This document shows, in pieces, positions 2,094 to 36,106 of a stretch of 39,240 nucleotides of DNA; position 1 is the stretch's first letter; every line of letters begins with the position of its first letter. Origin of the DNA: a virus (lineage: Duplodnaviria > Heunggongvirae > Uroviricota > Caudoviricetes); the IMG/VR virus record IMGVR_UViG_2634166457_000020, positions 1 to 39,240 of that record. One strand, written 5' to 3'. The notes beneath the pieces were generated by a model, which searched no databases, had not been told where the DNA came from, and saw only the letters and a program-made list of their open reading frames with translations. The position numbers and the translations under genes are program-made.

Positions 2094-3193
2094 TGTTCTG
2101 CTCCCAGACTTCCTTTGGTAAAAGCTTGTATCAGCCTGTTTGCTGCCGCTTTCTGTGCTGCTACATTGGCAATAACTGATAGTTTTTCCTGGCTTGCTTT
2201 CGTGCAGATCCCAACCCAATTATCCATTAGGAAAAAATTCTCTCTTTCTGCGAAGTCAGTATTTGCACATAATGTTTCAATCATTGAAATTATTTCTTTT
2301 ATTGAGTGATTAACCATCATTTGCTGAACAGCATAACCAAAAGCGTTAATCATCACTGCATGAAACTGGATATATTCTCTTTTGTATTCTGATTGCTTTG
2401 TACCATGGCGAATTGCTTCTAGTTGTGTAAGACATAACCATGATTCCCATACTGACTCGATGTTACCAATTTCTAGTTTTTTTCCATTATGAATACAAAA
2501 TTTTGATGTTGAATCACTTAATGCTTTGAAACTCACCCACATGTTTGACTTTGACGGAACAACGTTGTGCTCGAAGTCAGTGACTTCTGCAAAAGTGTCA
2601 TGTTGCGACAGGAAAGACACCATTTCTTGGGCAACATCGTTTCGTCCGTCATACGCCATATTAATTGCTGCAGATGGTTTTGAAACATTATTATTAATGT
2701 CAGAAAAGAACTGCTGACGCGCCTTCAAAGGAAGGTTATGCGTAAGTATAAGAGGAATCATAATTGTTTCACCATAATTACGGCAGAACTCAGCTAATCC
2801 TGCAGCACGATGCTGTCCATCAAATAATTTTATTTCTGCATCCATAGGAAATCTAGCTAAACCGACATTAGTATTTCCAATCTCATGGAACTCTATTTCT
2901 GAGTTACAATTTCCGACCAATGGTGGAACAATAAATGGTTCCTTTTTCTCGTAAGCGTTGACTAAATATTGATAAAACTTTTTTACCCTGGTTGGATTAA
3001 TTTCACGTTGAGAACGTTCAAGGGTACTTCCCGTATTGTCGGTTGCCAATACTCTCGATAGTGCTCTTGCTGGTACTGTCATCATAAGTATTACAGTGCT
3101 TCCCTGCGTTCCTCGTGATGCGGGAAATTCAAAGAAATAATCGCCTACCTTGCTCATGATATTACCTTTTATATTATTGTTTTGTTTATTCAT
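2090..3193 (-). CDS. DGQHR-domain protein (DndB-like / ParB-like DNA-binding), 367 aa (or 355 aa if start is ATG at 3157)
   Basis: Contains the FDGQHRAAGL motif defining the DGQHR domain family; tight coupling to the downstream methyltransferase. Confidence 0.7.
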   Translation of the reverse strand: MNKQNNNIKGNIMSKVGDYFFEFPASRGTQGSTVILMMTVPARALSRVLATDNTGSTLERSQREINPTRVKKFYQYLVNAYEKKEPFIVPPLVGNCNSEIEFHEIGNTNVGLARFPMDAEIKLFDGQHRAAGLAEFCRNYGETIMIPLILTHNLPLKARQQFFSDINNNVSKPSAAINMAYDGRNDVAQEMVSFLSQHDTFAEVTDFEHNVVPSKSNMWVSFKALSDSTSKFCIHNGKKLEIGNIESVWESWLCLTQLEAIRHGTKQSEYKREYIQFHAVMINAFGYAVQQMMVNHSIKEIISMIETLCANTDFAERENFFLMDNWVGICTKASQEKLSVIANVAAQKAAANRLIQAFTKGSLGAEQ

Positions 3194-3452
3194 AAACCAC
3201 CCCGCAACATCCTATGCCGCTATAGTCGCCACGGCGAAGGCCGTTACCTTTTGTGATACATTGGTCCCTGCGAACCGCGATCCTTGCACGCTCAACATCA
3301 CCAGAAGCAACATCCATACACTGAAGCCAAAGGTGAGCGGCAATGCGGAACTGCCCTTTTTTCTCTCTTTCAATCGCGCGTTTTTCGATCTCTATCGCCG
3401 CAGGAGTAACGGCGACAATCTTTGACGGACTGCGCATTGAAACCTTGTTCAT
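3186..3452 (-). CDS. Small hypothetical protein, first gene of cargo operon (about 83-99 aa; start uncertain: 3485, 3452 or 3437)
   Basis: ORF 3186..3485 on minus strand; its stop overlaps the start region of the DGQHR gene; no recognisable motif. Confidence 0.35.
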   Translation of the reverse strand: MNKVSMRSPSKIVAVTPAAIEIEKRAIEREKKGQFRIAAHLWLQCMDVASGDVERARIAVRRDQCITKGNGLRRGDYSGIGCCGVVYE

Positions 3453-6428: not shown

Positions 6429-7013
6429 TTATTGTTTGTTTTTTTCGTTCTGGTTGATGACAAATTCAATGTAACTTTCGATCTTTGCTTTCTCGGTTTC
6501 GGGTAACAATGCGTAGCGCGAGCGATCATAGTTGATGGTCGCAGGGTCGTGCGGGTGAATCAGTAATTCATAGCCGTGACGCCCGAATGCGGATGCAACA
6601 TTCTCCAGGGTGGAAATGGAAACGCTGACCTCATTGTTTAACAGGCGGCTGATTGTCACCTGGGCGACGCCGGATGCGCGGTGAAGTTTTCCCTGAGTTG
6701 AAAGGTCGCGGCTTTCGCTCATCCAGCGTTCCAGGTTGTGAGCCGCCAGCTGACCAATGTCGCTTGGGCCGACAGGCTGAAAACCTTCCTGAGAAAGCGA
6801 GCGATCGATATCAAGCCAGTTACGGGGTTTATTGGCGGCAGCTTCAATTTTTCGCGCAACCTGGTCGCCGATAACCTTCTTGCCAAGAGCCCAGCGGTTT
6901 ACCAGATTTGCCTGAGTTCCAAGTTTTTCTGCCATCCGCGTCTGAACACCATTGAATTCACGGTCGATCAAGTCGTTGAGATTTTGCCTGCGGACGTCCT
7001 GGATACTTTTCAT
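6429..7013 (-). CDS. Phage repressor-like protein with two tandem XRE-type helix-turn-helix domains, 194 aa; no S24 peptidase domain
   Basis: HTH 1 TRMAEKLGTQANLVNRWALGKK; HTH 2 KLHRASGVAQVTISRLLNNEVSVSISTLENVASAFG; located between two operator clusters and divergent from a Cro-like gene. Confidence 0.65.
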   Translation of the reverse strand: MKSIQDVRRQNLNDLIDREFNGVQTRMAEKLGTQANLVNRWALGKKVIGDQVARKIEAAANKPRNWLDIDRSLSQEGFQPVGPSDIGQLAAHNLERWMSESRDLSTQGKLHRASGVAQVTISRLLNNEVSVSISTLENVASAFGRHGYELLIHPHDPATINYDRSRYALLPETEKAKIESYIEFVINQNEKNKQ

Positions 7014-7068: not shown

Positions 7069-7131
7069 TTACCCAACAGGTAAATGCACCCCATAGGTAA
7101 CTATCCTTGATTTTTGTTACCTTATGGGTGA
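7069..7131. promoter_or_regulatory. Rightward operator/promoter cluster (OR-like), three sites: TTACC-CAACA-GGTAA (7069-7083), GCACC-CCATA-GGTAA (7086-7100), TTACC-TTATG-GGTGA (7117-7131)
   Basis: Three adjacent 15-bp palindromic sites in the 154-bp divergent region between repressor start (7013) and Cro-like start (7168); candidate -35 TTGATT at 7105-7110. Confidence 0.65.
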
Positions 7132-9362: not shown

Positions 9363-9479
9363 TACCAGCGCGATAGCGCATTTTTTTACGTCTACATAAT
9401 TACCTGTTAGGTAATAAAATGTTCTAAAATCTATTGATTTCGTGTCTTATGTGGTTTTTAATTACCTCAGGGGTAAATC

Positions 9480-12197: not shown

Positions 12198-12471
12198 CCT
12201 GCAACTTGCCGTCAAAGGTGAATACTTCGATGCCATGATTCGCGGGGAGAAAACAGAAGAATATCGCCTGTGTAATGACTACTGGAATAAGCGAATTATG
12301 TTCAGGGAGTATGACCGCCTGATTATCACAAAGGGATACCCGAAGCGCGACGATTCCAGCCGCAGAATTGATATTCCGTATGGCGGATATGAAATCAAAA
12401 CAATCACACATCCGCACTTCGGCGATAAACCGGTAAAGGTGTTCGCGATAAAGGTGAATATTGATGGCTAA
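12190..12471 (+). CDS. Hypothetical small protein, about 93 aa (GTG start with GGAGG SD)
   Basis: ORF 12118..12471 trimmed to GTG at 12190 preceded by ggagg. Confidence 0.4.
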   Translation: MANLQLAVKGEYFDAMIRGEKTEEYRLCNDYWNKRIMFREYDRLIITKGYPKRDDSSRRIDIPYGGYEIKTITHPHFGDKPVKVFAIKVNIDG

Positions 12472-12802
12472 ATCAGCAGCAGAGCGCAAAGCCGCTCAGA
12501 GAGCCAGACAAGCTGAATCCGGTGTGCGTAAGCTGGAAATTATGCTTGATGCTCAGGAAATTGAAATGCTGGAGCGTAACTGTGCCACGCGTCGCCCCGG
12601 GCGTGCGCCTTACGAATTTGGTGAGTATATAGCGTTACTGATCCGCCAGGATGATGCACGCGTGCGTGGGCGTATGAAATCGATCAGCAGAAAACGTTGC
12701 GGTAAGTGCGGAGAGAGAGTTCCTGTGAATTCATGCCCGTGTAATGGTGACTCGCAATGCTGGGTGACTAAAGGCTGGCATGAAACGAAATTAATAGTGT
12801 GA
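12464..12802 (+). CDS. Putative DNA-binding regulator: ribbon-helix-helix-like N-terminus plus C-terminal zinc ribbon, 112 aa
   Basis: RKLEIMLDAQEIEMLE resembles an RHH strand-helix; C-terminal CGKCGERVPVNSCPCNG is a four-Cys zinc-ribbon pattern; stop abuts palindrome AGTGTGACATGTCAC. Confidence 0.45.
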   Translation: MAKSAAERKAAQRARQAESGVRKLEIMLDAQEIEMLERNCATRRPGRAPYEFGEYIALLIRQDDARVRGRMKSISRKRCGKCGERVPVNSCPCNGDSQCWVTKGWHETKLIV

Positions 12803-12819
12803 CATGTCACGAAGGTGTT

Positions 12820-13032
12820 ATGCCAAAAATACGCTACGACCTTGAAGATATGAGAGATAACTCAGCAAATTTTCCGAAAGAGGTTAAATTTCTTATGAAT
12901 AAGTATGGTTGCGCCAGGAGGGATATAGTTATCGACAGTCAGCACCCTTGCGGTGAGGATGTAATTTTCATTCGCGGTAAATGGGAAGGGTATCTTGACG
13001 AGAGTTTTTACGATGAATTTGATGGACTTTGA
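12820..13032 (+). CDS. Hypothetical small protein, 70 aa
   Basis: ORF between the palindrome at 12796-12810 and the terminator at 13038-13063. Confidence 0.35.
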   Translation: MPKIRYDLEDMRDNSANFPKEVKFLMNKYGCARRDIVIDSQHPCGEDVIFIRGKWEGYLDESFYDEFDGL

Positions 13033-13037
13033 ATACT

Positions 13038-13063
13038 GCCGCCAACTATGGCGGCTTTATTTT
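13038..13063 (+). terminator. Rho-independent terminator upstream of terminase genes (GCCGCC-AACTAT-GGCGGC plus TTTATTTT)
   Basis: 6-bp GC stem followed by T-rich tract. Confidence 0.6.
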
Positions 13064-13097
13064 GCATGGTACTATTACCACAACGGTAACTATTACC

Positions 13098-13703
13098 ATG
13101 GTGGTTATGATGCCTGCTGAACCTAAAACCTATAAACGCAAATCAACGCAATTTAAGCCACTAACAGCAATGCAGGAGGCTTATTGCCAGTCATACATCA
13201 AAACGCCTGAAAACCAGACTCAGGCTGCGATTAACGCAGGATTCTCCCCAAATACAGCGGCAGTTAAAGCCAGTGTCATGATGCGCGATGAACGCATTCA
13301 GAAACGGATTGCCGAGTTGATGGAGGAGCGCAACAAACGAATGCGCGTCAGTGCTGATTACGTTCTCATGCGCCTGGTGGAGATCGACCAGATGGACGTG
13401 ATCGACATCCTCAACGACGATGGGAGCCTTAAACCAATCCGTGAGTGGCCGAAAATCTGGCGCACTACGCTTAGTGGCTTTGATCTGTCGTCGACCATCA
13501 TGAACATGAACGAGGATTCGATAGAGACAATCCTCAAAAAAATTAAATGGCCTGACAAGGTGAAGAACCTTGAGCTGATTGGTAAGCATGTTGATGTCAA
13601 CGCGTTCAAAGAACGTCTGGATGTTAATGTGAATGTGACAATTGCTGATCGCATAGCAGCAGCCAGGAAGCGACTCAAAGAACGTCAGGATGGTAATCAG
13701 TGA
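13098..13703 (+). CDS. Terminase small subunit, about 201 aa; start uncertain (13098, 13107 or 13110)
   Basis: Sequence YCQSYIKTPENQTQAAINAGFSPNTAAVKASVMMRDERIQKRIAEL resembles the HTH-type terminase small subunit family; stop overlaps the large subunit start (GTGA). Confidence 0.7.
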   Translation: MVVMMPAEPKTYKRKSTQFKPLTAMQEAYCQSYIKTPENQTQAAINAGFSPNTAAVKASVMMRDERIQKRIAELMEERNKRMRVSADYVLMRLVEIDQMDVIDILNDDGSLKPIREWPKIWRTTLSGFDLSSTIMNMNEDSIETILKKIKWPDKVKNLELIGKHVDVNAFKERLDVNVNVTIADRIAAARKRLKERQDGNQ

Positions 13704-16049: not shown

Positions 16050-16212
16050 GAACTGGAAGCAATGAGTTATGCCTTCCGTGGCTGTACTGGTTTACAGCAT
16101 GAAGTCATCGCAATGGCGTCCTGCTGTAAAAAGGGCGGTGATAGTCCTTCAAGGGAAACCATCACCGCCAAGCCCCTGGAACTTCTGGCATCACGGTCCT
16201 TAGGCGTGATTC

Positions 16213-16289
16213 TGGCGTGGCATGCAGGATTCGAACCTGCGACCAACCGCTTAGAAGGCGGTTGCTCTGTCCAACTGAGCTAATGCCAC
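16213..16289 (-). tRNA. tRNA-Arg (anticodon UCU, reads AGA), 77 nt including encoded CCA
   Basis: Manually folded cloverleaf: acceptor GUGGCAU/AUGCCAC, D-stem GCUC/GAGC, anticodon stem ACCGC/GCGGU with loop CUUCUAA, T-stem GCAGG/CCUGC with loop UUCGAAU, discriminator G, CCA. Confidence 0.85.
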
Positions 16290-16937: not shown

Positions 16938-18617
16938 ATGGCGGAAACAACTAAAGAGCGATTGAACAAACAGTTCGCACAACTTGAAAGCGAGCGTCAG
17001 TCGTTCGAGCCGCACTGGCGCGAGTTGAGTGATTACATCAACCCGCGTGGTTCCCGCTTTCTGACTTCTGAGGTCAACCGTAACGATCGACGCAATACAC
17101 GCATTATTGATTCGACCGGGACTATGGCGGCGCGCACTCTCGCCAGCGGCATGATGTCAGGCATCACAAGCCCCGCGCGTCCGTGGTTTCGCTTGGCTAC
17201 GCCAGATCCTGAAATGATGGATTATGGCCCTGTTAAGTTGTGGCTTGAGGCGGTGCAGAACCGCATGAACGATATGTTCAATAAGTCGAATCTCTACCAG
17301 TCTCTTCCGCAGTTATACGGAAGCCTCGGCACATACAGCACCGGTGCAATGGCGGTACTGGAGGATGACGAGGACATCATTCGCACAATGCCATTCCCGA
17401 TAGGCAGTTACTACCTGGCTAACTCACCTCGTGGCAGTGTGGACACCTGTTTTCGCAAGTTCTCTATGACTGTTCGTCAGCTTGTTCAGGAGTTCGGGCT
17501 AAATAACGTCAGCGAATCCGTAAAAAGCATGTGGGAAAGCGGCACCTACGAGAAGTGGATTGAAGTGATGCATTCGGTTTACCCGAACATTGACCGCGAT
17601 ACATCGAAGCTGGATAGCAAGAACAAGCCATTCAAATCGGTTTATTACGAGGTTGGTGGCGATAACGACAAGTTGTTGCGTGAGTCCGGATTCGATGAGT
17701 TTCCAATTATGGCTCCGCGCTGGGAAGTTAACGGCGAAGATGTTTATGGATCATCATGCCCGGGTATGCTGGCGCTTGGACCTGTTAAGGCATTGCAGCT
17801 TCTCCAGAAGCGCAAGTCGCAGTTGATTGATAAAGCCACCAATCCGCCGATGGTTGCTCCGACTTCCCTCAAGAATCAGCGCGCCTCCCTTCTTCCTGGC
17901 GACATCACGTATATCGATCAGATTACTGGTCAGGATGGTTTCAGGCCTGCTTATCTGGTTAACCCCAGTACAGCAGATCTGGTAGCAGACATTCAGGACA
18001 CTCGCCAAATCATTAACAGCGCCTACTTTGTCGATCTGTTCATGATGTTGCAGAACATCAATACCCGCTCGATGCCTGTTGAAGCAGTGATCGAAATGAA
18101 AGAAGAAAAGCTTCTGATGTTGGGGCCGGTTCTGGAGCGTCTGAACGACGAATGTCTTAATCCTCTCATTGACCGCGCTTTCTCGATGATGGTGCGTAAA
18201 AACATGCTGCCGCCACCGCCTGACGCGATGGAAGGCATGCCCCTGAAGGTCGAATACATTTCCGTCATGGCTCAGGCGCAGAAGTCTATCGGCCTGTCCA
18301 GTCTGGCGTCCACGGTTAACTTCATTGGTCAACTTGCGCAAGCGAAACCAGAAGCTCTCGACAAACTCAATGTTGATCAGGCGATCGATGCATTCGCTGA
18401 TATGTCCGGAGTGTCTCCAACCGTCATTGTTCCGCAGGAACAGGTTGAGCAGGCTCGCCAGCAACGGGCACAGCAGCAACAGCAGCAACAAATGATGGCG
18501 ATGGGAATGGCGGCGGCACAGGGCGCCAAGACGCTAAGCGAAGCTAAAACTTCGGATCCGAGTGTTTTGTCAGCTATGGCGAATGCAGTTAGTGGTCAGG
18601 GTGGGCAATCACAATGA
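16938..18617 (+). CDS. Portal (head-tail connector) protein, 559 aa
   Basis: Size, position after terminase, N-terminal ERQSFEPHWRELSDYINP and Q-rich C-terminal tail typical of podovirus portal proteins. Confidence 0.8.
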   Translation: MAETTKERLNKQFAQLESERQSFEPHWRELSDYINPRGSRFLTSEVNRNDRRNTRIIDSTGTMAARTLASGMMSGITSPARPWFRLATPDPEMMDYGPVKLWLEAVQNRMNDMFNKSNLYQSLPQLYGSLGTYSTGAMAVLEDDEDIIRTMPFPIGSYYLANSPRGSVDTCFRKFSMTVRQLVQEFGLNNVSESVKSMWESGTYEKWIEVMHSVYPNIDRDTSKLDSKNKPFKSVYYEVGGDNDKLLRESGFDEFPIMAPRWEVNGEDVYGSSCPGMLALGPVKALQLLQKRKSQLIDKATNPPMVAPTSLKNQRASLLPGDITYIDQITGQDGFRPAYLVNPSTADLVADIQDTRQIINSAYFVDLFMMLQNINTRSMPVEAVIEMKEEKLLMLGPVLERLNDECLNPLIDRAFSMMVRKNMLPPPPDAMEGMPLKVEYISVMAQAQKSIGLSSLASTVNFIGQLAQAKPEALDKLNVDQAIDAFADMSGVSPTVIVPQEQVEQARQQRAQQQQQQQMMAMGMAAAQGAKTLSEAKTSDPSVLSAMANAVSGQGGQSQ

Positions 18618-19622: not shown

Positions 19623-20609
19623 ATGGCTGTTAAAGGCTTAACTGCGCTAACGCTGGCTGACTGGGGTAAGCGCGTCGATCCAAACGGGAAAGTCGATAAG
19701 ATTATCGAGCTTCTCGGTCAAACTAACCCGATCCTTCAGGATATGCCTTTTGTCGAAGGGAACCTTCCTACCGGACACCGAACCACCATTCGTTCTGGTT
19801 TACCTTCAGCTACCTGGCGTTTGCTGAACTATGGCGTACAGCCAAGCAAATCAACCACAGTGCAGGTGACCGATTCCGTTGGCATGTTGGAAACCTATGC
19901 TGAAGTCGATAAGTCACTGGCTGATCTGAACGGTAATACCGCCGAATTCCGCCTGTCTGAAGACCGTGCATTTATTGAAGCGATGAATCAGCAGATGGCG
20001 CAGACACTGTTTTATGGTGATTCCAGCGTTAACCCTCAGCAGTTTATGGGACTGTCCTCCCGCTATTCCAGCCTGTCTGCGGGTAATGCTCAGAACATCA
20101 TTGATGCTGGTGGCACGGGTACAGATAACACCTCAATCTGGTTAGTGGTGTGGGGCGAAAACACCGTGCATGGCATCTTCCCGAAAGGGCAGAAGGCTGG
20201 CATCCAGATGGAAGATAAAGGCCAGGTGACACTGGAAGATGCTAATGGCGGCAAGTACGAAGGCTACCGTACCCATTACAAATGGGACAACGGACTTGCT
20301 CTGCGTGACTGGCGTTATGTTGTTCGCATTGCAAACATCGATGTCAGCAATCTTTCAGAACCTTCCTCTGCCGCAAATATTGCGAAGTTGATGGTTAAAG
20401 CACTGCATCGCATTCCAAACCGTGGCATGGGTCGCCCGGTGTTCTACATGAACCGCACTGTAGGCCAGGCTCTTGATCTGCAATCTCTGGAGAAAACATC
20501 TCTGGCGATCAGCGTAAAAGAGACAGAAGGCGAGTGGTGGACTTCATTCCGTGGTGTACCAATCCGTGAAACTGATGCGCTTCTGGAAACAGAAGCCCGC
20601 GTGGTGTAA
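19623..20609 (+). CDS. Major capsid protein, about 328 aa
   Basis: Size and position; strong SD AAGAGAGGA with ATG at 19623; followed by a stem-loop. Confidence 0.7.
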   Translation: MAVKGLTALTLADWGKRVDPNGKVDKIIELLGQTNPILQDMPFVEGNLPTGHRTTIRSGLPSATWRLLNYGVQPSKSTTVQVTDSVGMLETYAEVDKSLADLNGNTAEFRLSEDRAFIEAMNQQMAQTLFYGDSSVNPQQFMGLSSRYSSLSAGNAQNIIDAGGTGTDNTSIWLVVWGENTVHGIFPKGQKAGIQMEDKGQVTLEDANGGKYEGYRTHYKWDNGLALRDWRYVVRIANIDVSNLSEPSSAANIAKLMVKALHRIPNRGMGRPVFYMNRTVGQALDLQSLEKTSLAISVKETEGEWWTSFRGVPIRETDALLETEARVV

Positions 20610-30227: not shown

Positions 30228-32702
30228 ATGAGACAGGAATGTATACAAGCGGTTCAGCAGGCGGCGCAGCGCATGTTAACGGCGCGAGAAATACAGAACA
30301 TTGAAGACCGCATTTATCGAAATATGCGCTCCATTGCTCGTGATGACCCGATGTCGTGGCGACAACTTTCCGAATCAGAGCGGTTGTATCGTGCAGCACA
30401 ATTGGCATCTGAAGAATTACAGCGAGAAGCGGCATTAAAGAAACGTCGTGTGACCCTCACTATAGCCGCACGTCAGAGATTGGATAAATTTATCAATAGC
30501 TATCAAGGGGCTGATGGGAAACTTGGCGCTCTTAACCGTACTATTGCTTTTAATGCAGACGGTAAATCTAATTTCCTCTCTGTTGAATCCAGAACAAAAG
30601 CCACCCGTGATTATGCATTGAGTCAATTGCAGGAGGCATTCGAAGCAGTTGATCCTCGCTTTTTTGGTCTGTTTGAAGATGAAGCGGGCGTACGTGACCT
30701 GGTATATGAAATGCGGGGGCAAAATACTGGCAATGCAAAAGCAAGAAAAGGTGCTAAGGCGTGGAGAGAAGTTACAGAGCTGCTGCGCCGCCGGTTTAAT
30801 GATGCTGGTGGGGACATTGGCTATCTCGAAAACTGGGGGATCCCTCAACATCATTCTATGGAAAAGGTTGGGGCGGTATCAAAGGATAAGTGGGTTAGCG
30901 ATGTTATAGGTAAGCTGGATCGCAAATATTATACCCGAGCCGATGGACAACTGATGAACGATGCCGAGTTGTCTGCATTTCTTGGAGAGGCTTATAACAC
31001 GATCGCTACTGGTGGGCTGAATAAGCTTACTGATACCGGAATGCGAATTTCCGGCGCACGTGCTAACCGTGGTAATGCATCACGACAGATACATTTCAAA
31101 GATGCAGATTCCTATCTCCAATATCAACAACTTTATGGCGATCGCTCTCTATGGGAAATCATGGTCGGTCACCTGGAAGGTATCAGTAAAGATATTGCTC
31201 TGGTGGAAACATATGGCCCAAACCCCGATCATGTTTTCCGCTCCCTTCTTGATCAGGTGAAGGCAGAAACGGCAACAGCTAACCCGAGTAAAACTGGTAG
31301 CGTCGAGCGCCTGGCGAACAACACAGAGAACCTGTACAACTTTATTTCCGGAAAGACACAGCCTGTAGCGAATCCGCACATCGCGAGATGGTCTGACAAT
31401 ATCCGCAACTGGCTGGTTGCCAGCCGACTAGGATCCGCGTTGCTGTCATCGTTTTCTGATCTCGGAACCATGTATCTGTCTGCGAAGGTGTTAAACCTTC
31501 CAATGAACCAGTTATTCCGCAACCAGCTTGAAGCTATGGACCCAACTAACCGTACTGAGCTTGCGCGGGCGCGCCGCGCTGGTCTGGCGATGGAGTCTCT
31601 ACTTGGCAGCGTTAACCGCTGGGCGATGGATAATATGGGGCCTTCTGTGTCTCGTTGGGCGGCAACGGCGGTAATGCGTGCCAGTGGGCTTACAGCATGG
31701 TCAGATGCGCACAAGCGCGCCTATGGCGTAACCATGATGGGAAGCTTGGGAGAAGTAGTGTCACGGACACCAGACCTTCGTAGCCTCGATGACTCTGATT
31801 TTCGTATCCTGAAAAGCAAAGGGATTACTGACATAGACTGGAGCGTATGGAAGCTGGCGCAACAGGAGGACTGGGGGAACGGTAATAATACGATGCTGAC
31901 ACCGGAAAGCATTATGCGTATCCCTGATTCAGCAGTTAAACATCTTGGTGAGCCTGAACGCGTGAAATTTGAGGCAATGCGTAAACTGCTCGGTGCCGTA
32001 ACTGAAGAAGTTGATATGGCTGTTATTACACCTGGAGCACGTGAGCAACTGATAACCGGTTCTGGTATTCAGCGTGGAACATGGAAAGGTGAATTAACGA
32101 GAAGTGTTTTCCTGTTTAAATCGTTCCCTATCTCGGTTGTTATGCGTCACTGGTCACGCGCTATGGGTATGCCGTCTGCTGGTGGGCGTGCGGCATATAT
32201 TGCGACGTTTATTGCCAGTACGACCATTCTTGGCGCTTTGTCGCAGCAACTTAACGACCTTGCGTCTGGTCGTAATCCTCGAGAGATGATAGGAGAAGAT
32301 GCCGCAAAATTCTGGCTTGGTGCTCTACTGAAAGGTGGTGGTCTTGGCCTTTACGGTGACTTTTTATTGTCAGATCACACTAGGTACGGAAGCGGTGCGC
32401 TGGCATCAATGCTTGGTCCGGTAGCCGGTCTGGTTGATGACGTAGTGAAGATAGCTCAGGGCATACCACTAAATGCTGTGGAAGGGAAAAACGAGCAGAC
32501 TGGTGGTGATCTGGTGAAACTTGGGAAAGGGCTGATGCCAGGTGCGAATCTCTGGTACTTGAAGGCAGCTCTTGATCACATGATCTTTAACCAGATGCAG
32601 GAGTATTTTTCACCAGGCTATTTGCGAAAAATGGAACAACGTTCGAAGAAAGAGTTTAACCAGACATACTGGTGGCGACCACAGGATGTCACTCCGCAAT
32701 AA
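30228..32702 (+). CDS. Internal virion/ejection protein, 824 aa
   Basis: Last large gene of the internal-core block before the tailspike. Confidence 0.5.
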   Translation: MRQECIQAVQQAAQRMLTAREIQNIEDRIYRNMRSIARDDPMSWRQLSESERLYRAAQLASEELQREAALKKRRVTLTIAARQRLDKFINSYQGADGKLGALNRTIAFNADGKSNFLSVESRTKATRDYALSQLQEAFEAVDPRFFGLFEDEAGVRDLVYEMRGQNTGNAKARKGAKAWREVTELLRRRFNDAGGDIGYLENWGIPQHHSMEKVGAVSKDKWVSDVIGKLDRKYYTRADGQLMNDAELSAFLGEAYNTIATGGLNKLTDTGMRISGARANRGNASRQIHFKDADSYLQYQQLYGDRSLWEIMVGHLEGISKDIALVETYGPNPDHVFRSLLDQVKAETATANPSKTGSVERLANNTENLYNFISGKTQPVANPHIARWSDNIRNWLVASRLGSALLSSFSDLGTMYLSAKVLNLPMNQLFRNQLEAMDPTNRTELARARRAGLAMESLLGSVNRWAMDNMGPSVSRWAATAVMRASGLTAWSDAHKRAYGVTMMGSLGEVVSRTPDLRSLDDSDFRILKSKGITDIDWSVWKLAQQEDWGNGNNTMLTPESIMRIPDSAVKHLGEPERVKFEAMRKLLGAVTEEVDMAVITPGAREQLITGSGIQRGTWKGELTRSVFLFKSFPISVVMRHWSRAMGMPSAGGRAAYIATFIASTTILGALSQQLNDLASGRNPREMIGEDAAKFWLGALLKGGGLGLYGDFLLSDHTRYGSGALASMLGPVAGLVDDVVKIAQGIPLNAVEGKNEQTGGDLVKLGKGLMPGANLWYLKAALDHMIFNQMQEYFSPGYLRKMEQRSKKEFNQTYWWRPQDVTPQ

Positions 32703-32711
32703 GGATGAGAA

Positions 32712-32852
32712 ATGCTTACTTTTATTCTTGTTGTATTTGCGCTTGTTGCCCTTGGCGTTATGAACCGTAAATGTATCATTGAAGACGGTGAATTTGCTGT
32801 CGCAGTTGTTTTTATATTATCTGGTTTAGCGGGGTACATAGGTTTGTCATAG
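32712..32852 (+). CDS. Small hydrophobic peptide, 46 aa; not in ORF track
   Basis: ATG at 32712 preceded by AAGGATGAG SD; single predicted transmembrane helix; followed by palindrome and terminator. Confidence 0.3.
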   Translation: MLTFILVVFALVALGVMNRKCIIEDGEFAVAVVFILSGLAGYIGLS

Positions 32853-32872
32853 CTTGAGTGTGACATGTCACA

Positions 32873-32897
32873 GGCCGCTTTCGCGGCCTTTAATTTT
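32873..32897 (+). terminator. Rho-independent terminator ending the late structural operon (GGCCGC-TTTC-GCGGCC plus TTTAATTTT)
   Basis: 6-bp GC stem followed by T-rich tract; lies between convergent genes. Confidence 0.65.
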
Positions 32898-33153
32898 ACC
32901 GGATTTGTTTTCGTAATTGTTCGGCACAATAGTCGAGATGCGTTTGCAGATCCCGCATAGACATCTGTGAGTTGGTTACGTAGTTGATCAGTGCAGTCAG
33001 TTCGGCAAGTGGGCCATCGACATTGAATCCATCTTTATCGAGATCCCGGAGTAATTTCATCAAGTGCGATCCCTCCACTAGTGATCTGACGCCTCCAGGT
33101 GTGTGAATCCTTTCGGTAAATCCGTCTTCCAGTGGATAGTGATACTGCTGCAT
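32896..33153 (-). CDS. Hypothetical antisense small protein, about 85 aa (start MQQYHYPLEDGF)
   Basis: Internal Met of ORF 32896..33387 chosen because the upstream part overlaps the tailspike promoter region and the ATG at 33153 has a GGAGAAG SD. Confidence 0.35.
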   Translation of the reverse strand: MQQYHYPLEDGFTERIHTPGGVRSLVEGSHLMKLLRDLDKDGFNVDGPLAELTALINYVTNSQMSMRDLQTHLDYCAEQLRKQIR

Positions 33154-33349
33154 CTTATCTTCTCCATGCAATAACTGTATGAATATACAGTACCAAATAA
33201 TTTGTTTGCTATCCAGCACGTTTTGTAAATCACCTGAAAGGTAATATCTGTTCGTATCGATGATGTTTCTATCCCATATATGGTTTTTAAGGTAATAAAA
33301 TGGCCGGATATGCGGCGCAACGGGTGCTGCGACTATCTGGAGATTTAAC

Positions 33350-36106
33350 ATGACGGTCTCAACCGAAGTTGACCACAACGAATACATTGGTAACGGTGTT
33401 ACAACGACATTCCCTTATACATTCAGGATTTTCCAGAGATCAGATCTGGTAGTACATGTGGTTGACCTTGATGAAAATATCGCTGTGCTGGCGCTTGATA
33501 CTGATTACACAGTTACCGGGGCTGGTGGATACAACGGTGGTAATGTGATATTGACTACGGCACTGGCCAGCGGATACCAGATTTCCATATCGCGAGAACT
33601 CCCGGTTACGCAGGAAACTGATCTGCGCAATCAAGGGAAGTTCTTTGCTGAGGTGCATGAGGATGCATTTGATAAGCTAACGATGTTGATTCAGCAGGTT
33701 AGAAGTTGGTTTAGCCTAGCGCTGCGCAAACCGTCATTCGTGGCAAGCTATTACGATGCTTTAAATAATTACATCAGAAATTTGCGTGATCCACTACATC
33801 CACAGGATGCAGCCACTAAAAACTATGCTGACTCATTAAATGCTGAAAATACATCACATACAGATTTGTTATTTAGTAGAACTTTGCGTACAGCAGAAGG
33901 TATTCCACAATTACCATCTGCAGAGTTCCGCAAAAATAAAATTGTTGGTATGGATAATGACGGTAACCCGATCATGTTGTTACCGGAATCTGGTTCTGCC
34001 TCTGATGTTCTGCTGGAGTTGGCAAAACCAACTGGTGCCAGTTATATCGGTACGAAGTATGGTAGTCTTGATGAGTACATAGACAATACTCCAAGCCTGT
34101 TAGCCACAAAGTATATGGATGAAATTGAGATGGCAGCACTGGAGTCAGGTGACTTGTCAGTAAACCATCAGCCAAAGGTCCAGCAGGTAATGGATGAAGC
34201 CCATAACAGGAAATGCTCAGTGTATTTCCCGCCAGGTACATACTGCTTTGATACCGCTGTTAACGTCTGGTCTTACGTCCGTTCTGTTTGGGGTGACGGT
34301 AGTGCAATTATTACTCGTCGGTATCGCACGTTTTTTGTTGATGGCTCAACGACAGATATTGATCCGGCGCGTGATACACGTAAATTATTCCGATTGTTAA
34401 ATGGGGCATTGGGGTATATATCAGTGCATGGTATTACGTTTGATGGTAATGCCAGATCTATCGAGGTGTCGGAATCCGGTACGAGCGGTACGACAGGAAT
34501 TCCAGACCAAACATATTATCAGGACCTGGAGCCTGGTGGCACCTCTCCTTATGTCCATGGGCCTGATGGTAACATCCCTGTTCATGGGGAAAGCTATTAC
34601 AACCACGCAAAGAAACTGTCTGGAACAGATGTGTATGATTGTGTGTTTCGTGATGCTCCAGGCGGATGTATTGTTGGTAACTTCAGAAATCTTAGGGTCT
34701 CCTCAAACTCATTTTTGGGTTGGTATGATCACGCAATTTACGCAGCAGGAAGTGCTTTCGCTGATCAGGGTAATGGAATTTTGGTTGGTGATATTACGGT
34801 CACTGGGAATACCTTCAGGAACAGAATAAACACTCGTGGTAATGGGGCTGTTAAAGGAAGGTTTGGTTTTGACCGTTATACAGTTACTGGCAATACATTT
34901 GATGTTGTTGATTATTGTATGGCGTTTGATACTGGTCACGGGATGGTCGGAAGTGTTTACGCCATGCAGCCATGGGGGCAGATCACTGTAACTGGTAATA
35001 CATGCACCTGTGATAGTTATTGGATGATGATAGGTAACAACAGAGGTGTTAAGTGGTTTGATAACGGATGGATGTCTGCTATCAATATTTCTAACAACAC
35101 AGTCCAATCTAAGGATAGGATCCTGTTACTTGGAGTTAGCGGCAGTAATGATTATTTGATGGATGCATATCAAGTAAATATATCCAATAACACTTTTTCT
35201 GCACCTAACTTCTTATCGCTTTACACTCATTTAACTAACTGCGATTGGCGCATAGAAAGTAACAACATAACAATTACTAACACAGGGATGATTATAGGTG
35301 TAGACCAGGCTGAGGTTTCAAACTCAGTTCTTAGGCTTACAAATAATATAATGGGACGTGTATTAACGACCTCTACTGGCAATCTTCATCTCAGCAATTT
35401 CGAGCGCGTTATCATGAAAGGTAATGAGATTCGAAATCTGTCTATGAGTTTTGGTAGCTACGTTACTGACCTAACTATTGAAGGAAATGAATTCAGGTAC
35501 TCTTCTGCACTTCCTTCAAAACCATTTGGCTTTATGTACTCATCTGCTGGCAATGGATTCAACAGAATTAAATTATGTAAAAATAAAATCGTGGGTAGTC
35601 CAATAAGATTTTCCGTGAAATGCTCATCTGATTGTGTTCTTGACATGAGTGATAATAGCATTTACGGAATTACTGATTACTTCCTTGAGTTGAATGCAAC
35701 TGGTTACACTCCTAAAACCATGAGGGTTAACAACAATCTGGTGATAGGTGGTGCGCTAATAGCTGATCTTCCTGCTGGAGTATCTCTTGGTAGCACCTCA
35801 AGTTATATGGAGTTGATGAACAACACCTTACGATCAACTTCTCCAGGGACACAGCAGTCATGTACCATTCTGCGTGATGGAGGCGCTCAATCTTGGCTTA
35901 GCCATTATCAAACTATTCGGTGTGTAAAAAACACATTCCGCGATGTCACTAACATATTGAAAATAGATGGCTCTGCTTCTTCTGGGGTTTCTACAACTAA
36001 TAAGTTCTGGTTCGGCGAGAATCAGACATACAATTCAACGTTGACATGTAACTATCCTTCAATAAACAAGTCAAACACAGATGTCACACAGACTTTAAGT
36101 GTATAG
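33350..36106 (+). CDS. Tailspike/tail fiber protein with conserved N-terminal virion-attachment domain and beta-helix-like repeats, 918 aa
   Basis: N-terminal region EYIGNGVTTTFPYTFRIF typical of tail fiber/tailspike anchor domains; repetitive TVTGNTF-type segments suggest a right-handed beta-helix. Confidence 0.8.
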   Translation: MTVSTEVDHNEYIGNGVTTTFPYTFRIFQRSDLVVHVVDLDENIAVLALDTDYTVTGAGGYNGGNVILTTALASGYQISISRELPVTQETDLRNQGKFFAEVHEDAFDKLTMLIQQVRSWFSLALRKPSFVASYYDALNNYIRNLRDPLHPQDAATKNYADSLNAENTSHTDLLFSRTLRTAEGIPQLPSAEFRKNKIVGMDNDGNPIMLLPESGSASDVLLELAKPTGASYIGTKYGSLDEYIDNTPSLLATKYMDEIEMAALESGDLSVNHQPKVQQVMDEAHNRKCSVYFPPGTYCFDTAVNVWSYVRSVWGDGSAIITRRYRTFFVDGSTTDIDPARDTRKLFRLLNGALGYISVHGITFDGNARSIEVSESGTSGTTGIPDQTYYQDLEPGGTSPYVHGPDGNIPVHGESYYNHAKKLSGTDVYDCVFRDAPGGCIVGNFRNLRVSSNSFLGWYDHAIYAAGSAFADQGNGILVGDITVTGNTFRNRINTRGNGAVKGRFGFDRYTVTGNTFDVVDYCMAFDTGHGMVGSVYAMQPWGQITVTGNTCTCDSYWMMIGNNRGVKWFDNGWMSAINISNNTVQSKDRILLLGVSGSNDYLMDAYQVNISNNTFSAPNFLSLYTHLTNCDWRIESNNITITNTGMIIGVDQAEVSNSVLRLTNNIMGRVLTTSTGNLHLSNFERVIMKGNEIRNLSMSFGSYVTDLTIEGNEFRYSSALPSKPFGFMYSSAGNGFNRIKLCKNKIVGSPIRFSVKCSSDCVLDMSDNSIYGITDYFLELNATGYTPKTMRVNNNLVIGGALIADLPAGVSLGSTSSYMELMNNTLRSTSPGTQQSCTILRDGGAQSWLSHYQTIRCVKNTFRDVTNILKIDGSASSGVSTTNKFWFGENQTYNSTLTCNYPSINKSNTDVTQTLSV

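Follow-up and report, generated by a model that had tools for sequence, protein, structure and literature searches.

The stretch of DNA analysed here (the window; 39,240 nucleotides) is a phiV10/epsilon15-like (Uetakevirus) prophage. In the interval between its virion protein genes and its tailspike gene, the late structural operon very probably ends next to an SOS-induction module and a tailspike control region. Our evidence comes from the sequence: homology, where the motifs lie, how far they are conserved and by how much they exceed expectation; a literature search for transcriptome data on Uetakeviruses returned none. All features listed in the original prediction were recovered on re-reading the sequence, together with a key feature that it had overlooked, a perfect LexA box. 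The interval and its flanking genes comprise:

30228-32702, plus strand: gene for an 824-aa virion/internal protein, epsilon15 gp17-like, with which the large genes of the late operon end (phrog_684; ortholog of phiV10p20)
32701-32709, plus strand: AAGGATGAG, with the Shine-Dalgarno sequence for the 46-aa gene (read from the sequence)
32712-32852, plus strand: 46-aa gene, ortholog of phiV10p21 and SPC32H_019 (ORF list; phrog_7892)
32860-32871, no strand: GTGACATGTCAC, a perfect 12-bp palindrome and boundary element found across the genus
32872-32898, plus strand: rho-independent terminator of the late structural operon (terminator scan, RNA fold)
32896-33153, minus strand: ant, orthologous to SPC32H ant, for a predicted antirepressor of 85 aa (phrog_450; PDB 5D50 chain E)
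33160-33165, minus strand: ant Shine-Dalgarno sequence GGAGAA, 8 nt from the ATG (sequence)
33173-33192, no strand: LexA (SOS) box AACTGTATGAATATACAGTA, core CTGT-N8-ACAG at 33175-33190 (pattern search)
33187-33215, minus strand: putative ant promoter (PWM scan, TG-extended, score 7.75)
33230-33244, no strand: operator-like palindrome TCACC-TGAAA-GGTAA (TCACCTGAAAGGTAA; motif search)
33275-33301, plus strand: tailspike promoter-like module CATATATGGTTTTTAAGGTAATAAAAT (block conservation, motif recurrence)
33312-33330, plus strand: GC-rich hairpin GCGGCGC-AACGG-GTGCTGC, in the presumed tailspike leader (consensus fold)
33350-36106, plus strand: tailspike gene, 918 aa (phrog_1640; relatives' annotation)

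A small membrane protein gene and a terminator close the late operon

The 824-aa protein matches phrog_684 ('virion structural protein') with E=0. The TAA stop codon of its gene overlaps the Shine-Dalgarno sequence of the 46-aa gene, TAAGGA(TGAG), which lies 6 nt 5' of the ATG and is kept in phiV10, PAS61 and SPC32H, and the small gene is likely to be translationally coupled to the virion protein gene. Its product contains two hydrophobic segments, is annotated in relatives as 'putative integral membrane protein' and matches phrog_7892 (E=1.8e-30). Only 26 clusters represent it, all enterobacterial and all labelled 'hypothetical'; Pfam and NCBIfam hold no family for either the 46-aa or the 85-aa protein. 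Length and reading frame are the same in four phages (78-92% DNA identity), and substitutions relative to these phages fall mostly at the third codon position and never at the second.

The ORF is very short and lacks a Pfam or NCBIfam family, and in an E15-like phage and in Tyrion unrelated sequence stands in its place, as might be expected if the ORF had arisen by chance in the 3' trailer of that operon and were no functional gene. The replacing sequences, however, encode small membrane proteins too, and the identical length, the kept frame with its third-position-biased changes, the PHROG match and the conserved Shine-Dalgarno sequence coupled to the upstream stop all speak against chance, which we regard as very improbable. 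The 46-aa gene of the original prediction is therefore upheld by its phrog_7892 match and the lack of second-position changes and is, as judged from this conservation, a real gene for a conserved two-helix membrane protein of a narrow enterobacterial family. From its position alone, one might guess that the protein acts in the exclusion of superinfecting phages or in DNA ejection.

The palindrome GTGACATGTCAC that follows is invariant in six phages, even where the gene upstream is replaced by an unrelated one; a second exact copy lies at 12799-12810, and copies in relatives sit at module boundaries. A CRP site was considered and ruled out, because the spacing is TGTGA-N4-TCACA rather than N6. 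Immediately downstream, a GC-rich hairpin, AGGCCGC-TTTC-GCGGCCT (32872-32889; a 7-bp stem with 6 GC pairs and the loop TTTC), precedes a T-tract, TTAATTTT, which is interrupted and overlaps the ant stop codon. The 61-nt segment folds with -20.2 kcal/mol (z=-2.96), the stem is invariant across phages while the loop varies, and the phiV10 annotation also has a terminator here. Palindrome and terminator, both part of the original prediction, are borne out as genus-wide invariant elements. This conserved intrinsic terminator would stop late transcription after the 46-aa gene, which would be the last, coupled gene of the late operon and encode a small two-helix inner-membrane protein.

The antisense gene encodes an antirepressor ortholog under a LexA box

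The 85-aa ORF runs from an ATG at 33153 to a stop at 32896 and is nested in a 163-aa ORF reaching 33387; we take the 85-aa start as the real one on account of the orthologs, the conserved Shine-Dalgarno sequence (invariant in seven phages) and frame-breaking indels upstream. Residues 2-83 align with residues 3-84 of the 'Anti-repressor protein' in PDB entry 5D50 (chain E; E=1.6e-45), and the protein matches phrog_450 with E=5.1e-47. It is ~85% identical to the crystallised antirepressor of SPC32H (85 versus 86 aa), and its gene occupies the position of the annotated SPC32H ant. The ant sequence is found at the same position in phiV10, PAS61, SPC32H, an E15-like phage, TL-2011b, Tyrion (where the annotated ORF is shorter) and BUCT711, and relatives are encoded at 300 IMG/VR loci. 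Homology search, suggested in the original prediction, thus yielded an Ant ortholog for the 85-aa product and a PHROG family for the 46-aa product, both without a Pfam or NCBIfam counterpart.

The predicted target of Ant is encoded elsewhere in the window:

6429-7013, minus strand: rep, 194-aa prophage repressor (PDB 5D50 chain A)

Rep aligns over its full length with PDB 5D50 chain A, 'Repressor' (E=4e-42). It is 100% identical to phiV10 Rep and only ~42% identical to SPC32H Rep, and the predicted recognition-helix segment, NLVNRW, is the same in the window and SPC32H proteins. Pfam searches of Rep returned HTH domains only, and the Peptidase_S24 (autocleavage) domain is absent by the same search. 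Tetrameric Ant disrupts Rep tetramers, according to a review (PMC9638917). Because Rep is just ~42% identical to its SPC32H counterpart, we infer the Ant-Rep pairing in the present phage from orthology.

The LexA box has a perfect core, CTGTATGAATATACAG, 21 nt upstream of the ant ATG, and matches TACTGTATATATATACAGTA at 17 of 20 positions; the pattern CTGT-N8-ACAG occurs three times in the window, against 0.49 matches expected. CTGTAT...ATACAGTA of the box is invariant in seven phages, and the box lies 21-22 nt upstream of the ant ATG in 70 of 78 IMG/VR loci. Over a 2.2-kb region, SPC32H and SPC32N differ at two bases only, one of them a G->T change in the CTGT of the homologous box, which agrees with what Kim & Ryu reportedly described in 2013. 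At the level of sequence, the box is of the gamma-proteobacterial type, with an AT-rich core and a position over a promoter. This putative promoter consists of a -35 element, TGGATA (33215-33210), a 17-nt spacer and an extended -10 element, TGgTACTGT (33195-33187), and its CTATCCAGCA block and TGnTACTGT are kept in 7/7 phages. As a transcription unit, ant has this conserved promoter, and the hairpin downstream of it (the late-operon terminator on the opposite strand) is not followed by a U-run on the ant strand.

The ant -10 element and predicted start fall inside the LexA box, and ant is therefore predicted to be off in the lysogen. Host LexA bound to the box would hold ant off; upon DNA damage, LexA self-cleavage would lead to Ant being made; and Ant would then bind the non-cleavable Rep and strip Rep tetramers from their operators, resulting in lytic growth. 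A review likewise has Ant production following LexA cleavage and Ant inhibiting the repressor (PMC7380047). By orthology with SPC32H, this LexA-Ant-Rep mechanism is expected to operate in the present phage, and Ant is by the same analogy the predicted SOS induction trigger of the prophage.

The original prediction had regarded the 85-aa gene as a candidate moron of unknown function. A moron, transcribed from the prophage to the advantage of the host under a promoter and terminator of its own, would fit a lone antisense gene within the late region that has its own promoter-like sequence, lacks a Pfam or NCBIfam family and carries the label 'hypothetical protein' from the NCBI pipeline in all listed E. 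coli genomes. Yet the protein is an Ant homolog by its identity to a crystallised antirepressor, a gene with a LexA box across its promoter should be silent in the lysogen, the cognate Rep is present in the genome, and instead of the sporadic distribution of a moron, ant occurs in every Uetakevirus examined. For these reasons we discard the moron assignment as having almost no probability left, and the 85-aa gene is predicted to be a core gene of the lysis-lysogeny switch, repressed as long as the phage is a prophage.

The tailspike is preceded by a conserved promoter-like module

Residues 1-238 of the tailspike match phrog_1640, 'tail protein' (E=1.9e-145). The protein combines a conserved N-terminal head-binding domain with a pectate-lyase-like body, for which the Pfam model Pect-lyase_RHGA_epim stays below its curated cutoff (23.1 versus 27 bits, E=7.3e-5).

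Upstream of the gene, TATATGGTT at 33277-33285, the second element pointed out in the original prediction, belongs to a CATATRTGGTT family that precedes the portal, tailspike and lysis operons. The module includes a candidate -10 element, TAAAAT (33296-33301), and no recognisable -35 element; its blocks, CATAT..GGTT.TT..GGTAATA.AAT, are kept in BUCT711, a phage of Klebsiella, as well as in the seven phages compared. The shorter form ATRTGGTT also occurs 48-59 bp downstream of a TTACC-N5-GGTAA-type palindrome at 9449, 16671 and 37368, always on the plus strand. Its offsets to candidate -10 hexamers are inconsistent (15, 16 and 18 nt) and fix neither a -10 element nor a start. A reverse complement of ATRTGGTT in the spacer of P_L was dropped from consideration, the module alignment showing P_L without the motif. 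Written out, the motifs of the tailspike module are CATATATGGTT and the candidate -10 TAAAAT.

In the presumed leader, a consensus fold of five sequences keeps the GCGC core of the GC-rich hairpin; covariation is weak, since a single pair shows a double change. Rfam searches, run with a relaxed threshold on the region and also on the entire window, returned no regulatory RNA, only chance matches and a tRNA.

The original prediction held that the tailspike is transcribed from its own regulated promoter. What stands of this claim is a separate, back-to-back control region with conserved promoter-like blocks; a good sigma-70 promoter could not be predicted, as a simple consensus scan upstream of the tailspike finds none and PWM scores (4.1-5.7) lie below the background median of 6.4. 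These scores would suit a tailspike without a promoter of its own, reached by late transcription that reads through the terminator and ant, with the intergenic blocks serving ant or roles at the DNA level; so would the interrupted T-tract, and in P22 the tailspike gene (gene 9) is indeed expressed by read-through of immI, the antirepressor region. Against such read-through, the terminator stem is invariant genus-wide, the phiV10 annotation contains no Q-type antiterminator, and the CATATRTGGTT...GGTAATA.AAT block is closer to the tailspike, with over 60 bp separating it from the ant promoter; moreover, this block and the palindrome upstream of it recur before the portal and lysis operons, each time after a terminator. 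We consider read-through possible but doubtful. Given the conserved terminator, ant's own promoter and blocks of the type found at the portal and lysis operons, the tailspike plausibly has an independent, regulated promoter; it would be weak, without a -35 element and probably activator-dependent.

A palindrome repeated across the genome is a candidate Rep operator

The palindrome at 33230 belongs to a TTACC-N5-GGTAA motif with 12 sites in the window, including those at 9400 and 37318, placed at nearly every transcription-unit start; matches to the motif family are over-represented (33 versus 2.6 expected). Three sites lie in the immunity switch:

7069-7131, no strand: three TTACC-N5-GGTAA sites (7069, 7086, 7117) in the rep-cro intergenic switch (site list)

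Palindromes occupy the same positions in phiV10, SPC32H, Tyrion and BUCT711, with equivalent rep-cro triplets in the latter three, and in phiV10, 12 of 14 sites fall into the 6.5% of the genome that is non-coding (P=4.5e-13). A palindrome is found upstream of ant in 75 of 78 IMG/VR loci. Pairs of sites 62 bp apart flank P_L and P_mid, promoters with a good -35 element, and cover their start sites, and one rep-cro palindrome falls in the spacer and -10 element of the rightward promoter. Multiple copies between rep and cro and overlap with early promoters, as proposed for an operator, are thus found in the window and likewise in four other genomes. As the sites lie at nearly every transcription-unit start and three of them in the rep-cro switch, TTACC-N5-GGTAA is probably the operator of Rep, and possibly also of Cro; it is on the strength of the three like sites in the switch that we call the 33230 site an operator. 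In phage ZX5, overexpression of an identical Rep lowered the transcript levels of holin and endolysin by over 99.9% (PMC9782041).

Measured from its centre, the 33230 palindrome is ~57 bp away from the predicted ant start and ~70 bp from the candidate tailspike start, on the upstream side of each; simple repression from such positions would be unusual, and an activator could use them just as well. The palindrome might accordingly be the site of another regulator than Rep, such as the Cro-like 76-aa protein alone or a p55-like/PerC-like activator, which would switch on each operon, the tailspike included, from about -70. Several candidate regulators are encoded in the genome, among them a p55-like protein of 113 aa (12461-12802) and the left operon's PerC-like and AlpA-like proteins; the late-type promoters lack a -35 element and have a single site at about -70 (about -80 at portal), and the distances of 48, 49, 50 and 59 bp to ATRTGGTT suggest the helical phasing of a class I activator. 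Three sites crowding the rep-cro switch, one of them over the spacer and -10 element of the rightward promoter, and pairs bracketing P_L and P_mid across their start sites are, by contrast, the layout of a repressor, and the Rep tetramer has been proposed to loop DNA, with which the 62-bp pairs would fit (PMC9986798). We therefore think a regulator other than Rep unlikely. Co-variation of Rep and palindrome was sought in more distant phages, where BUCT711, with a Rep 45% identical, has the same palindrome; because all five genomes share one palindrome, the test gives no information on the binder.

Taking Rep as the probable binder, the palindrome between the ant promoter and the tailspike would act as a Rep (possibly Cro) operator, and the tailspike promoter, being of the portal/lysis-operon type, would be silenced together with those promoters in the lysogen. 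As a tentative extension, tetrameric Rep may directly silence every transcription unit of the prophage through about 12 operators, with the 62-bp pairs looping P_L and P_mid and single sites acting at the CATATRTGGTT promoters that lack a -35 element. If so, the site between ant and the tailspike ties expression of antirepressor and receptor-binding protein to one immunity protein.

Significance

At least part of the region is present in 532 of 5426 complete E. coli genomes, and the full interval in 54. In about one in ten complete E. coli genomes, then, ant, the predicted induction trigger of this prophage type, is labelled "hypothetical protein" in RefSeq; its correct name would explain the response of O-antigen-modifying phiV10-like prophages to DNA-damaging antibiotics. 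phiV10 and SPC32H are in use as reporter and biocontrol phages, and the location of ant, the LexA box and a probable operator directly upstream of an exchangeable tailspike matters for tailspike swaps and for strictly lytic derivatives. While the ant/LexA finding is largely already known, the multi-operator layout is the sole part that may be new: if true and undescribed, it would give epsilon15-like podoviruses a multi-operator immunity architecture resembling those of P1 C1 and L5 gp71. Operators and late-promoter motifs, if confirmed, would make a simple, testable regulatory map for the whole genus.

Comparison with known systems

The closest counterpart is the Ant-Rep switch of SPC32H (PDB 5D50 and 5D4Z). 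In both phages, ant is antisense to the two genes that flank it, one for a small membrane protein and one for the tailspike, and the LexA box overlapping its promoter is equally far from the ATG; the window also encodes an orthologous Rep with two HTH domains and no cleavage domain. The window differs in being a phiV10-type E. coli prophage, known from its sequence, in which Ant is ~85% but Rep only ~42% identical to the SPC32H protein.

Tum of coliphage 186 and the antirepressors of Gifsy and Fels-2 share the logic of a LexA-repressed small protein that inactivates a non-cleavable repressor (PMC7380047). They belong to other phage types (Myo- and Siphoviridae-like) and have no detectable sequence relationship to Ant in profile and structure-database searches. 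Sequence similarity does extend to Bro-N/KilAC-type antirepressors, which include phiV10p23 and Tyrion gp20: the C-terminal 78 residues of Tyrion gp20 align with the whole of Ant (40% identity, E=4e-20), as do positions 177-225 of phrog_1760, also of this type, with Ant. The window Ant has no Bro-N domain, and the ~1-kb Bro-N insert of phiV10 and Tyrion is absent from the window.

Dispersed operators of P1 C1 and the 'stoperators' of L5 gp71 place one short motif at many transcription units. The window likewise repeats one motif, at 12 sites; here the sites are symmetric 15-bp palindromes, often in 62-bp pairs, with a putative binder, and we offer the likeness as a lead only.

In P22, immI (mnt-arc-ant) lies between gene 16/sieA and the tailspike gene 9. 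P22 Ant, of ~300 aa, is unrelated in sequence and co-directional with the late genes, has Mnt and Arc in place of LexA as its regulators and is not needed for SOS induction. Neither mnt nor arc adjoins ant in the window, where 32853-33349 leaves no room for either and ant is the only conserved gene between terminator and tailspike. The overall arrangement is nevertheless alike: as in the window, the P22 antirepressor gene comes after the ejection-protein genes, which a gene for a small membrane protein follows, and ahead of the tailspike gene, and an O-antigen modification gene lies beyond the tailspike.

Features of the interval and relatives of the window

Sequence, ORF and terminator scans recovered all features originally predicted for the interval preceding the tailspike gene, at the following coordinates:

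32712–32852, plus strand: 46-aa ORF (ORF scan), with AAGGATGAG upstream, overlapping the TAA stop of the gene for an 824-aa virion protein
32860–32871: 12-bp palindrome GTGACATGTCAC (sequence)
32872–32889: hairpin AGGCCGC-TTTC-GCGGCCT, TTAATTTT next downstream (sequence, terminator scan)
32896, minus strand: end of the antisense ORF (ORF scan)
33230–33244: operator-like element TCACCTGAAAGGTAA (sequence)
33277–33285: second intergenic element TATATGGTT (sequence)

The longest mechanical antisense ORF comprises 163 aa (32896–33387). Sequence comparison places the real start at 33153, giving 85 aa, since a conserved GGAG lies 8 nt upstream, orthologs have lengths of 85–86 aa and the DNA further upstream shows single-base indels between phages.

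A megablast search with positions 32000–34000 matched 30 phage records, headed by Escherichia phages PAS61, phiV10 and O157 typing phages 9 and 10 (90–92% identity) and followed by Salmonella phages SPN1S, SPC32H and related phages (~78%). The window and all matched phages fall into the genus Uetakevirus, which comprises epsilon15-like temperate podoviruses, and the gene order in the window, mapped with the phiV10 annotation as a guide, is that of a prophage, running from integrase to lysis genes.

An ortholog of the SPC32H antirepressor gene behind a LexA box

The 85-aa gene had been proposed to be a moron of unknown function. A PDB sequence search with its product, as suggested in the original prediction, returned a single match, aligned end to end: 5D50 chain E, 'Anti-repressor protein' (86 aa, E=1.6e-45), which is Ant of Salmonella phage SPC32H. 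In SPC32H, ant occupies the identical position, on the opposite strand, between a 46-aa 'putative integral membrane protein' gene and the tailspike. In PHROGs, the 85-aa product matched phrog_450 (E=5e-47) and, more weakly, a 232-aa antirepressor family in its C-terminal part. Judged by these similarities, the 85-aa gene is ant. Close orthology therefore gives it a known function; moreover, ant was found in every Uetakevirus examined and, by prediction, is silent in the lysogen, and the moron label has to be dropped. The gene does appear to be transcribed as a separate unit, in antisense orientation to the late genes. Part of the region is carried by 532 of the 5426 complete E. coli RefSeq genomes, and the whole interval by 54; in the E. 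coli RefSeq records among the matches listed, neither ant nor the 46-aa gene has a name other than 'hypothetical protein', which for ant is an annotation gap, as the structure of a homolog has been solved.

A perfect LexA box, CTGTATGAATATACAG, overlooked in the original prediction, lies at 33175–33190, 21 nt upstream of the ant ATG; CTGT-N8-ACAG has three matches in the window, compared with 0.49 expected. A seven-phage alignment has variable flanks but keeps unchanged the ant SD, both halves of the box (CTGTAT/ATACAGTA), the ant-strand motif TGnTACTGT, a putative extended −10, and an CTATCCAGCA block, which provides a putative −35 (TGGATA) with a 17-nt spacer. In a position weight matrix ranking, this promoter was the second-best minus-strand candidate in the scanned interval and the best upstream of ant. 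Of 78 IMG/VR loci in which the ant start could be recognised, 70 have the box 21–22 nt from the ATG. Among the remaining loci are L048, a natural variant with CTGC for CTGT, and L061, in which a rearrangement has removed the left box half and the ant promoter. Both variants may be constitutive or non-inducible. In phage BUCT711 (locus L091, ~17010–17030), the ant ortholog is preceded by ATGTATATATATACAG, with ATGT instead of CTGT as the left box half, and LexA control may be weaker or altered there. A second CTGT-N8-ACAG match in the window, CTGTACTGGTTTACAG at 16082–16097, has a less AT-rich core and is a candidate LexA site only; it is located near a tRNA-Arg gene (anticodon TCT; 16213–16289, minus strand) in the variable stretch that separates the terminase genes from the portal gene, and SPC32H has a tRNA-Arg in the equivalent place.

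SPC32H and SPC32N differ by only two bases in the 2.2-kb region compared (record positions 19960 and 20147), one being a G→T exchange that alters the CTGT of the ant LexA box, the other a change within the tailspike gene. The exchange in the box agrees with a finding that Kim and Ryu are said to have made in 2013, namely that a LexA-box mutation renders Ant constitutive. As reviewed, LexA self-cleavage leads to synthesis of Ant, which inhibits the repressor (PMC7380047), with tetrameric Ant binding two Rep dimers and breaking the Rep tetramer (PMC9638917).

The predicted partner of Ant is also present in the window. The 194-aa product of the repressor gene (rep; 6429–7013, minus strand) aligned in full with 5D50 chain A, 'Repressor' (E=4e-42). 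Identity is 100% with phiV10 Rep and ~42% with SPC32H Rep, and the NLVNRW segment in the N-terminal helix-turn-helix is the same as in the latter. The domains that Pfam detected in this Rep were all helix-turn-helix, with no S24 autocleavage domain among them, in keeping with a repressor that relies on an antirepressor for induction. An identical Rep occurs in phage ZX5, where its overexpression cut holin and endolysin transcripts by >99.9%; a Bro-N protein was taken as the antirepressor in that study, and the small Ant was not mentioned (PMC9782041).

Candidate operators and late promoters across the prophage

A search for TTACC-N5-GGTAA with at most one mismatch gave 33 strand-matches, compared with 2.6 expected, representing 12 distinct sites.

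Positions of TTACC-N5-GGTAA palindrome sites in the window
6295, 6357: downstream of rep, around P_L, the leftward early promoter
7069, 7086, 7117: rep-cro region (two sites, or three if 7086, a strand-specific one-mismatch match, is included)
9400, 9462: after the replication-gene terminator
13075, 13093: terS start
15995
16612: before the portal operon
33230: before the tailspike
37318: before the lysis cassette

The palindromes mark nearly all transcription-unit starts of the prophage, with a matching layout in phiV10, SPC32H, Tyrion and Klebsiella phage BUCT711; in phiV10, 12 of 14 sites fall within the non-coding 6.5% of the genome (P=4.5e-13). At P_L and the post-replication promoter, two sites 62 bp apart are placed around a good −35 (TTGACA or TTGATT), the downstream site covering the start region, and in the rep-cro region one site lies within the spacer and −10 of the rightward promoter. 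The arrangement at these promoters reads as a repressor layout, and the pairing suits a DNA-looping tetramer, as has been proposed for Rep (PMC9986798). Together with the shared NLVNRW segment, these features suggest that TTACC-N5-GGTAA is probably the operator of Rep, and perhaps of Cro too. Co-variation of operator and repressor was uninformative as a test, all genomes compared sharing the motif.

At terS (region 13029–13111), the start annotated in phiV10 is upstream of the 13075 and 13093 sites, which are themselves 3' of a terminator, while SPC32H terS is annotated to begin 3' of the palindrome site; the true start in the window is thus probably the ATG at 13108 or 13111. Hand reading of the ~210 bp between the p55-like regulator gene and its terminator (~12821–13032, plus strand; absent in SPC32H) gave a candidate small ORF with an ATG at ~12821, the translation of which contains four stop codons.

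The tailspike had been predicted to be transcribed from its own regulated promoter. The element ATRTGGTT occurs five times in the window, always on the plus strand, and four copies (9449, 16671, 33278 and 37368) lie 48–59 bp downstream of a palindrome, forming plus-strand modules that precede two operons (DUF1064 and portal) as well as the tailspike and the lysis genes. Within the tailspike region, seven phages and BUCT711 have kept the blocks CATAT..GGTT.TT..GGTAATA.AAT, while the flanks have diverged. Three late-type modules contain a plausible −10 (TAAAAT/TAGAAT, AATGAT, TATGAT), no conserved −35 was found in these three, and each comes 3' of a terminator. They look like activator-dependent promoters, and (C)ATRTGGTT with a nearby −10 and without a −35 may define a distinct promoter class before four rightward operons. 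The modules, the block conservation and the preceding terminators favour a separate regulated tailspike promoter, to which we lean, if only modestly, over transcription of the tailspike by read-through, as in P22, a reading we consider rather unlikely. Promoter scans gave nothing above background, leaving the tailspike promoter plausible only, and the leader hairpin showed little covariation; literature searches found no transcript data for Uetakeviruses. The original interpretation was thus half right, in proposing a separate control region, and half wrong, in the moron label.

The 46-aa gene, terminator and 12-bp palindrome

The 46-aa product, for which a homology search had also been proposed, matched phrog_7892 (E=1.8e-30), and its orthologs in phiV10 and SPC32H carry the annotation of a two-helix membrane protein. 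Relative to its counterparts in phiV10, PAS61 and SPC32H, the gene has kept length and frame, with no substitutions at the second codon position and 9–13 at the third, as expected of a translated hydrophobic protein. Among 5.8 billion proteins it is represented by 26 clusters, all at least 74% identical, from Escherichia, Salmonella or Citrobacter only and all named 'hypothetical'. In an E15-like phage and Tyrion, the slot is filled by unrelated small proteins, also with hydrophobic segments. In P22, the membrane exclusion protein SieA is encoded directly 3' of the ejection-protein genes, and by analogy of position we tentatively suggest, with low confidence, that the 46-aa protein could act in superinfection exclusion or DNA ejection.

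The terminator stem is invariant in six phages, with a varying loop (TTTC, AGAA, AATA) and a stable fold. No U residues follow the hairpin on the ant strand; it is therefore a late-operon terminator and for ant at best a weak one. The 12-bp palindrome GTGACATGTCAC is invariant too, even where the upstream gene differs, and recurs exactly at 12799–12810, overlapping the stop codon of the gene for the p55-like regulator. In relatives, copies after the terminase terminator, after a gp18-like gene and at the p55 end always adjoin slots of variable genes, so that the palindrome might be described as a 'module boundary element'.

Comparison with known systems

The central feature of the interval, the Ant switch, is already known, and the genome-wide layout of operators and late promoters might be the sole new part. 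In phiV10 and probably most IMG/VR relatives, a Bro-N gene forms a ~1-kb insert between ant and the terminator (2419–3410 of the phiV10 locus, where phiV10p23 is truncated; 464–1168 of the Tyrion locus), whereas the window is compact here. A TTACC-N5-GGTAA site of its own lies upstream of the insert. The 12-bp palindrome is missing from the 400 bp next to the ant stop in 67 of the 78 IMG/VR loci, most of which may therefore have a similar insert. The small Ant itself corresponds to the domain found at the C-terminus of Bro-N antirepressors, Tyrion gp20 being one example (40% identity over 78 residues, E=4e-20). The module in the window and the Ant-Rep-LexA switch of SPC32H are orthologous. The position of the module recalls P22 immI, from which it differs in sequence and control, and with 186 Tum and the Gifsy antirepressors it shares the logic only.
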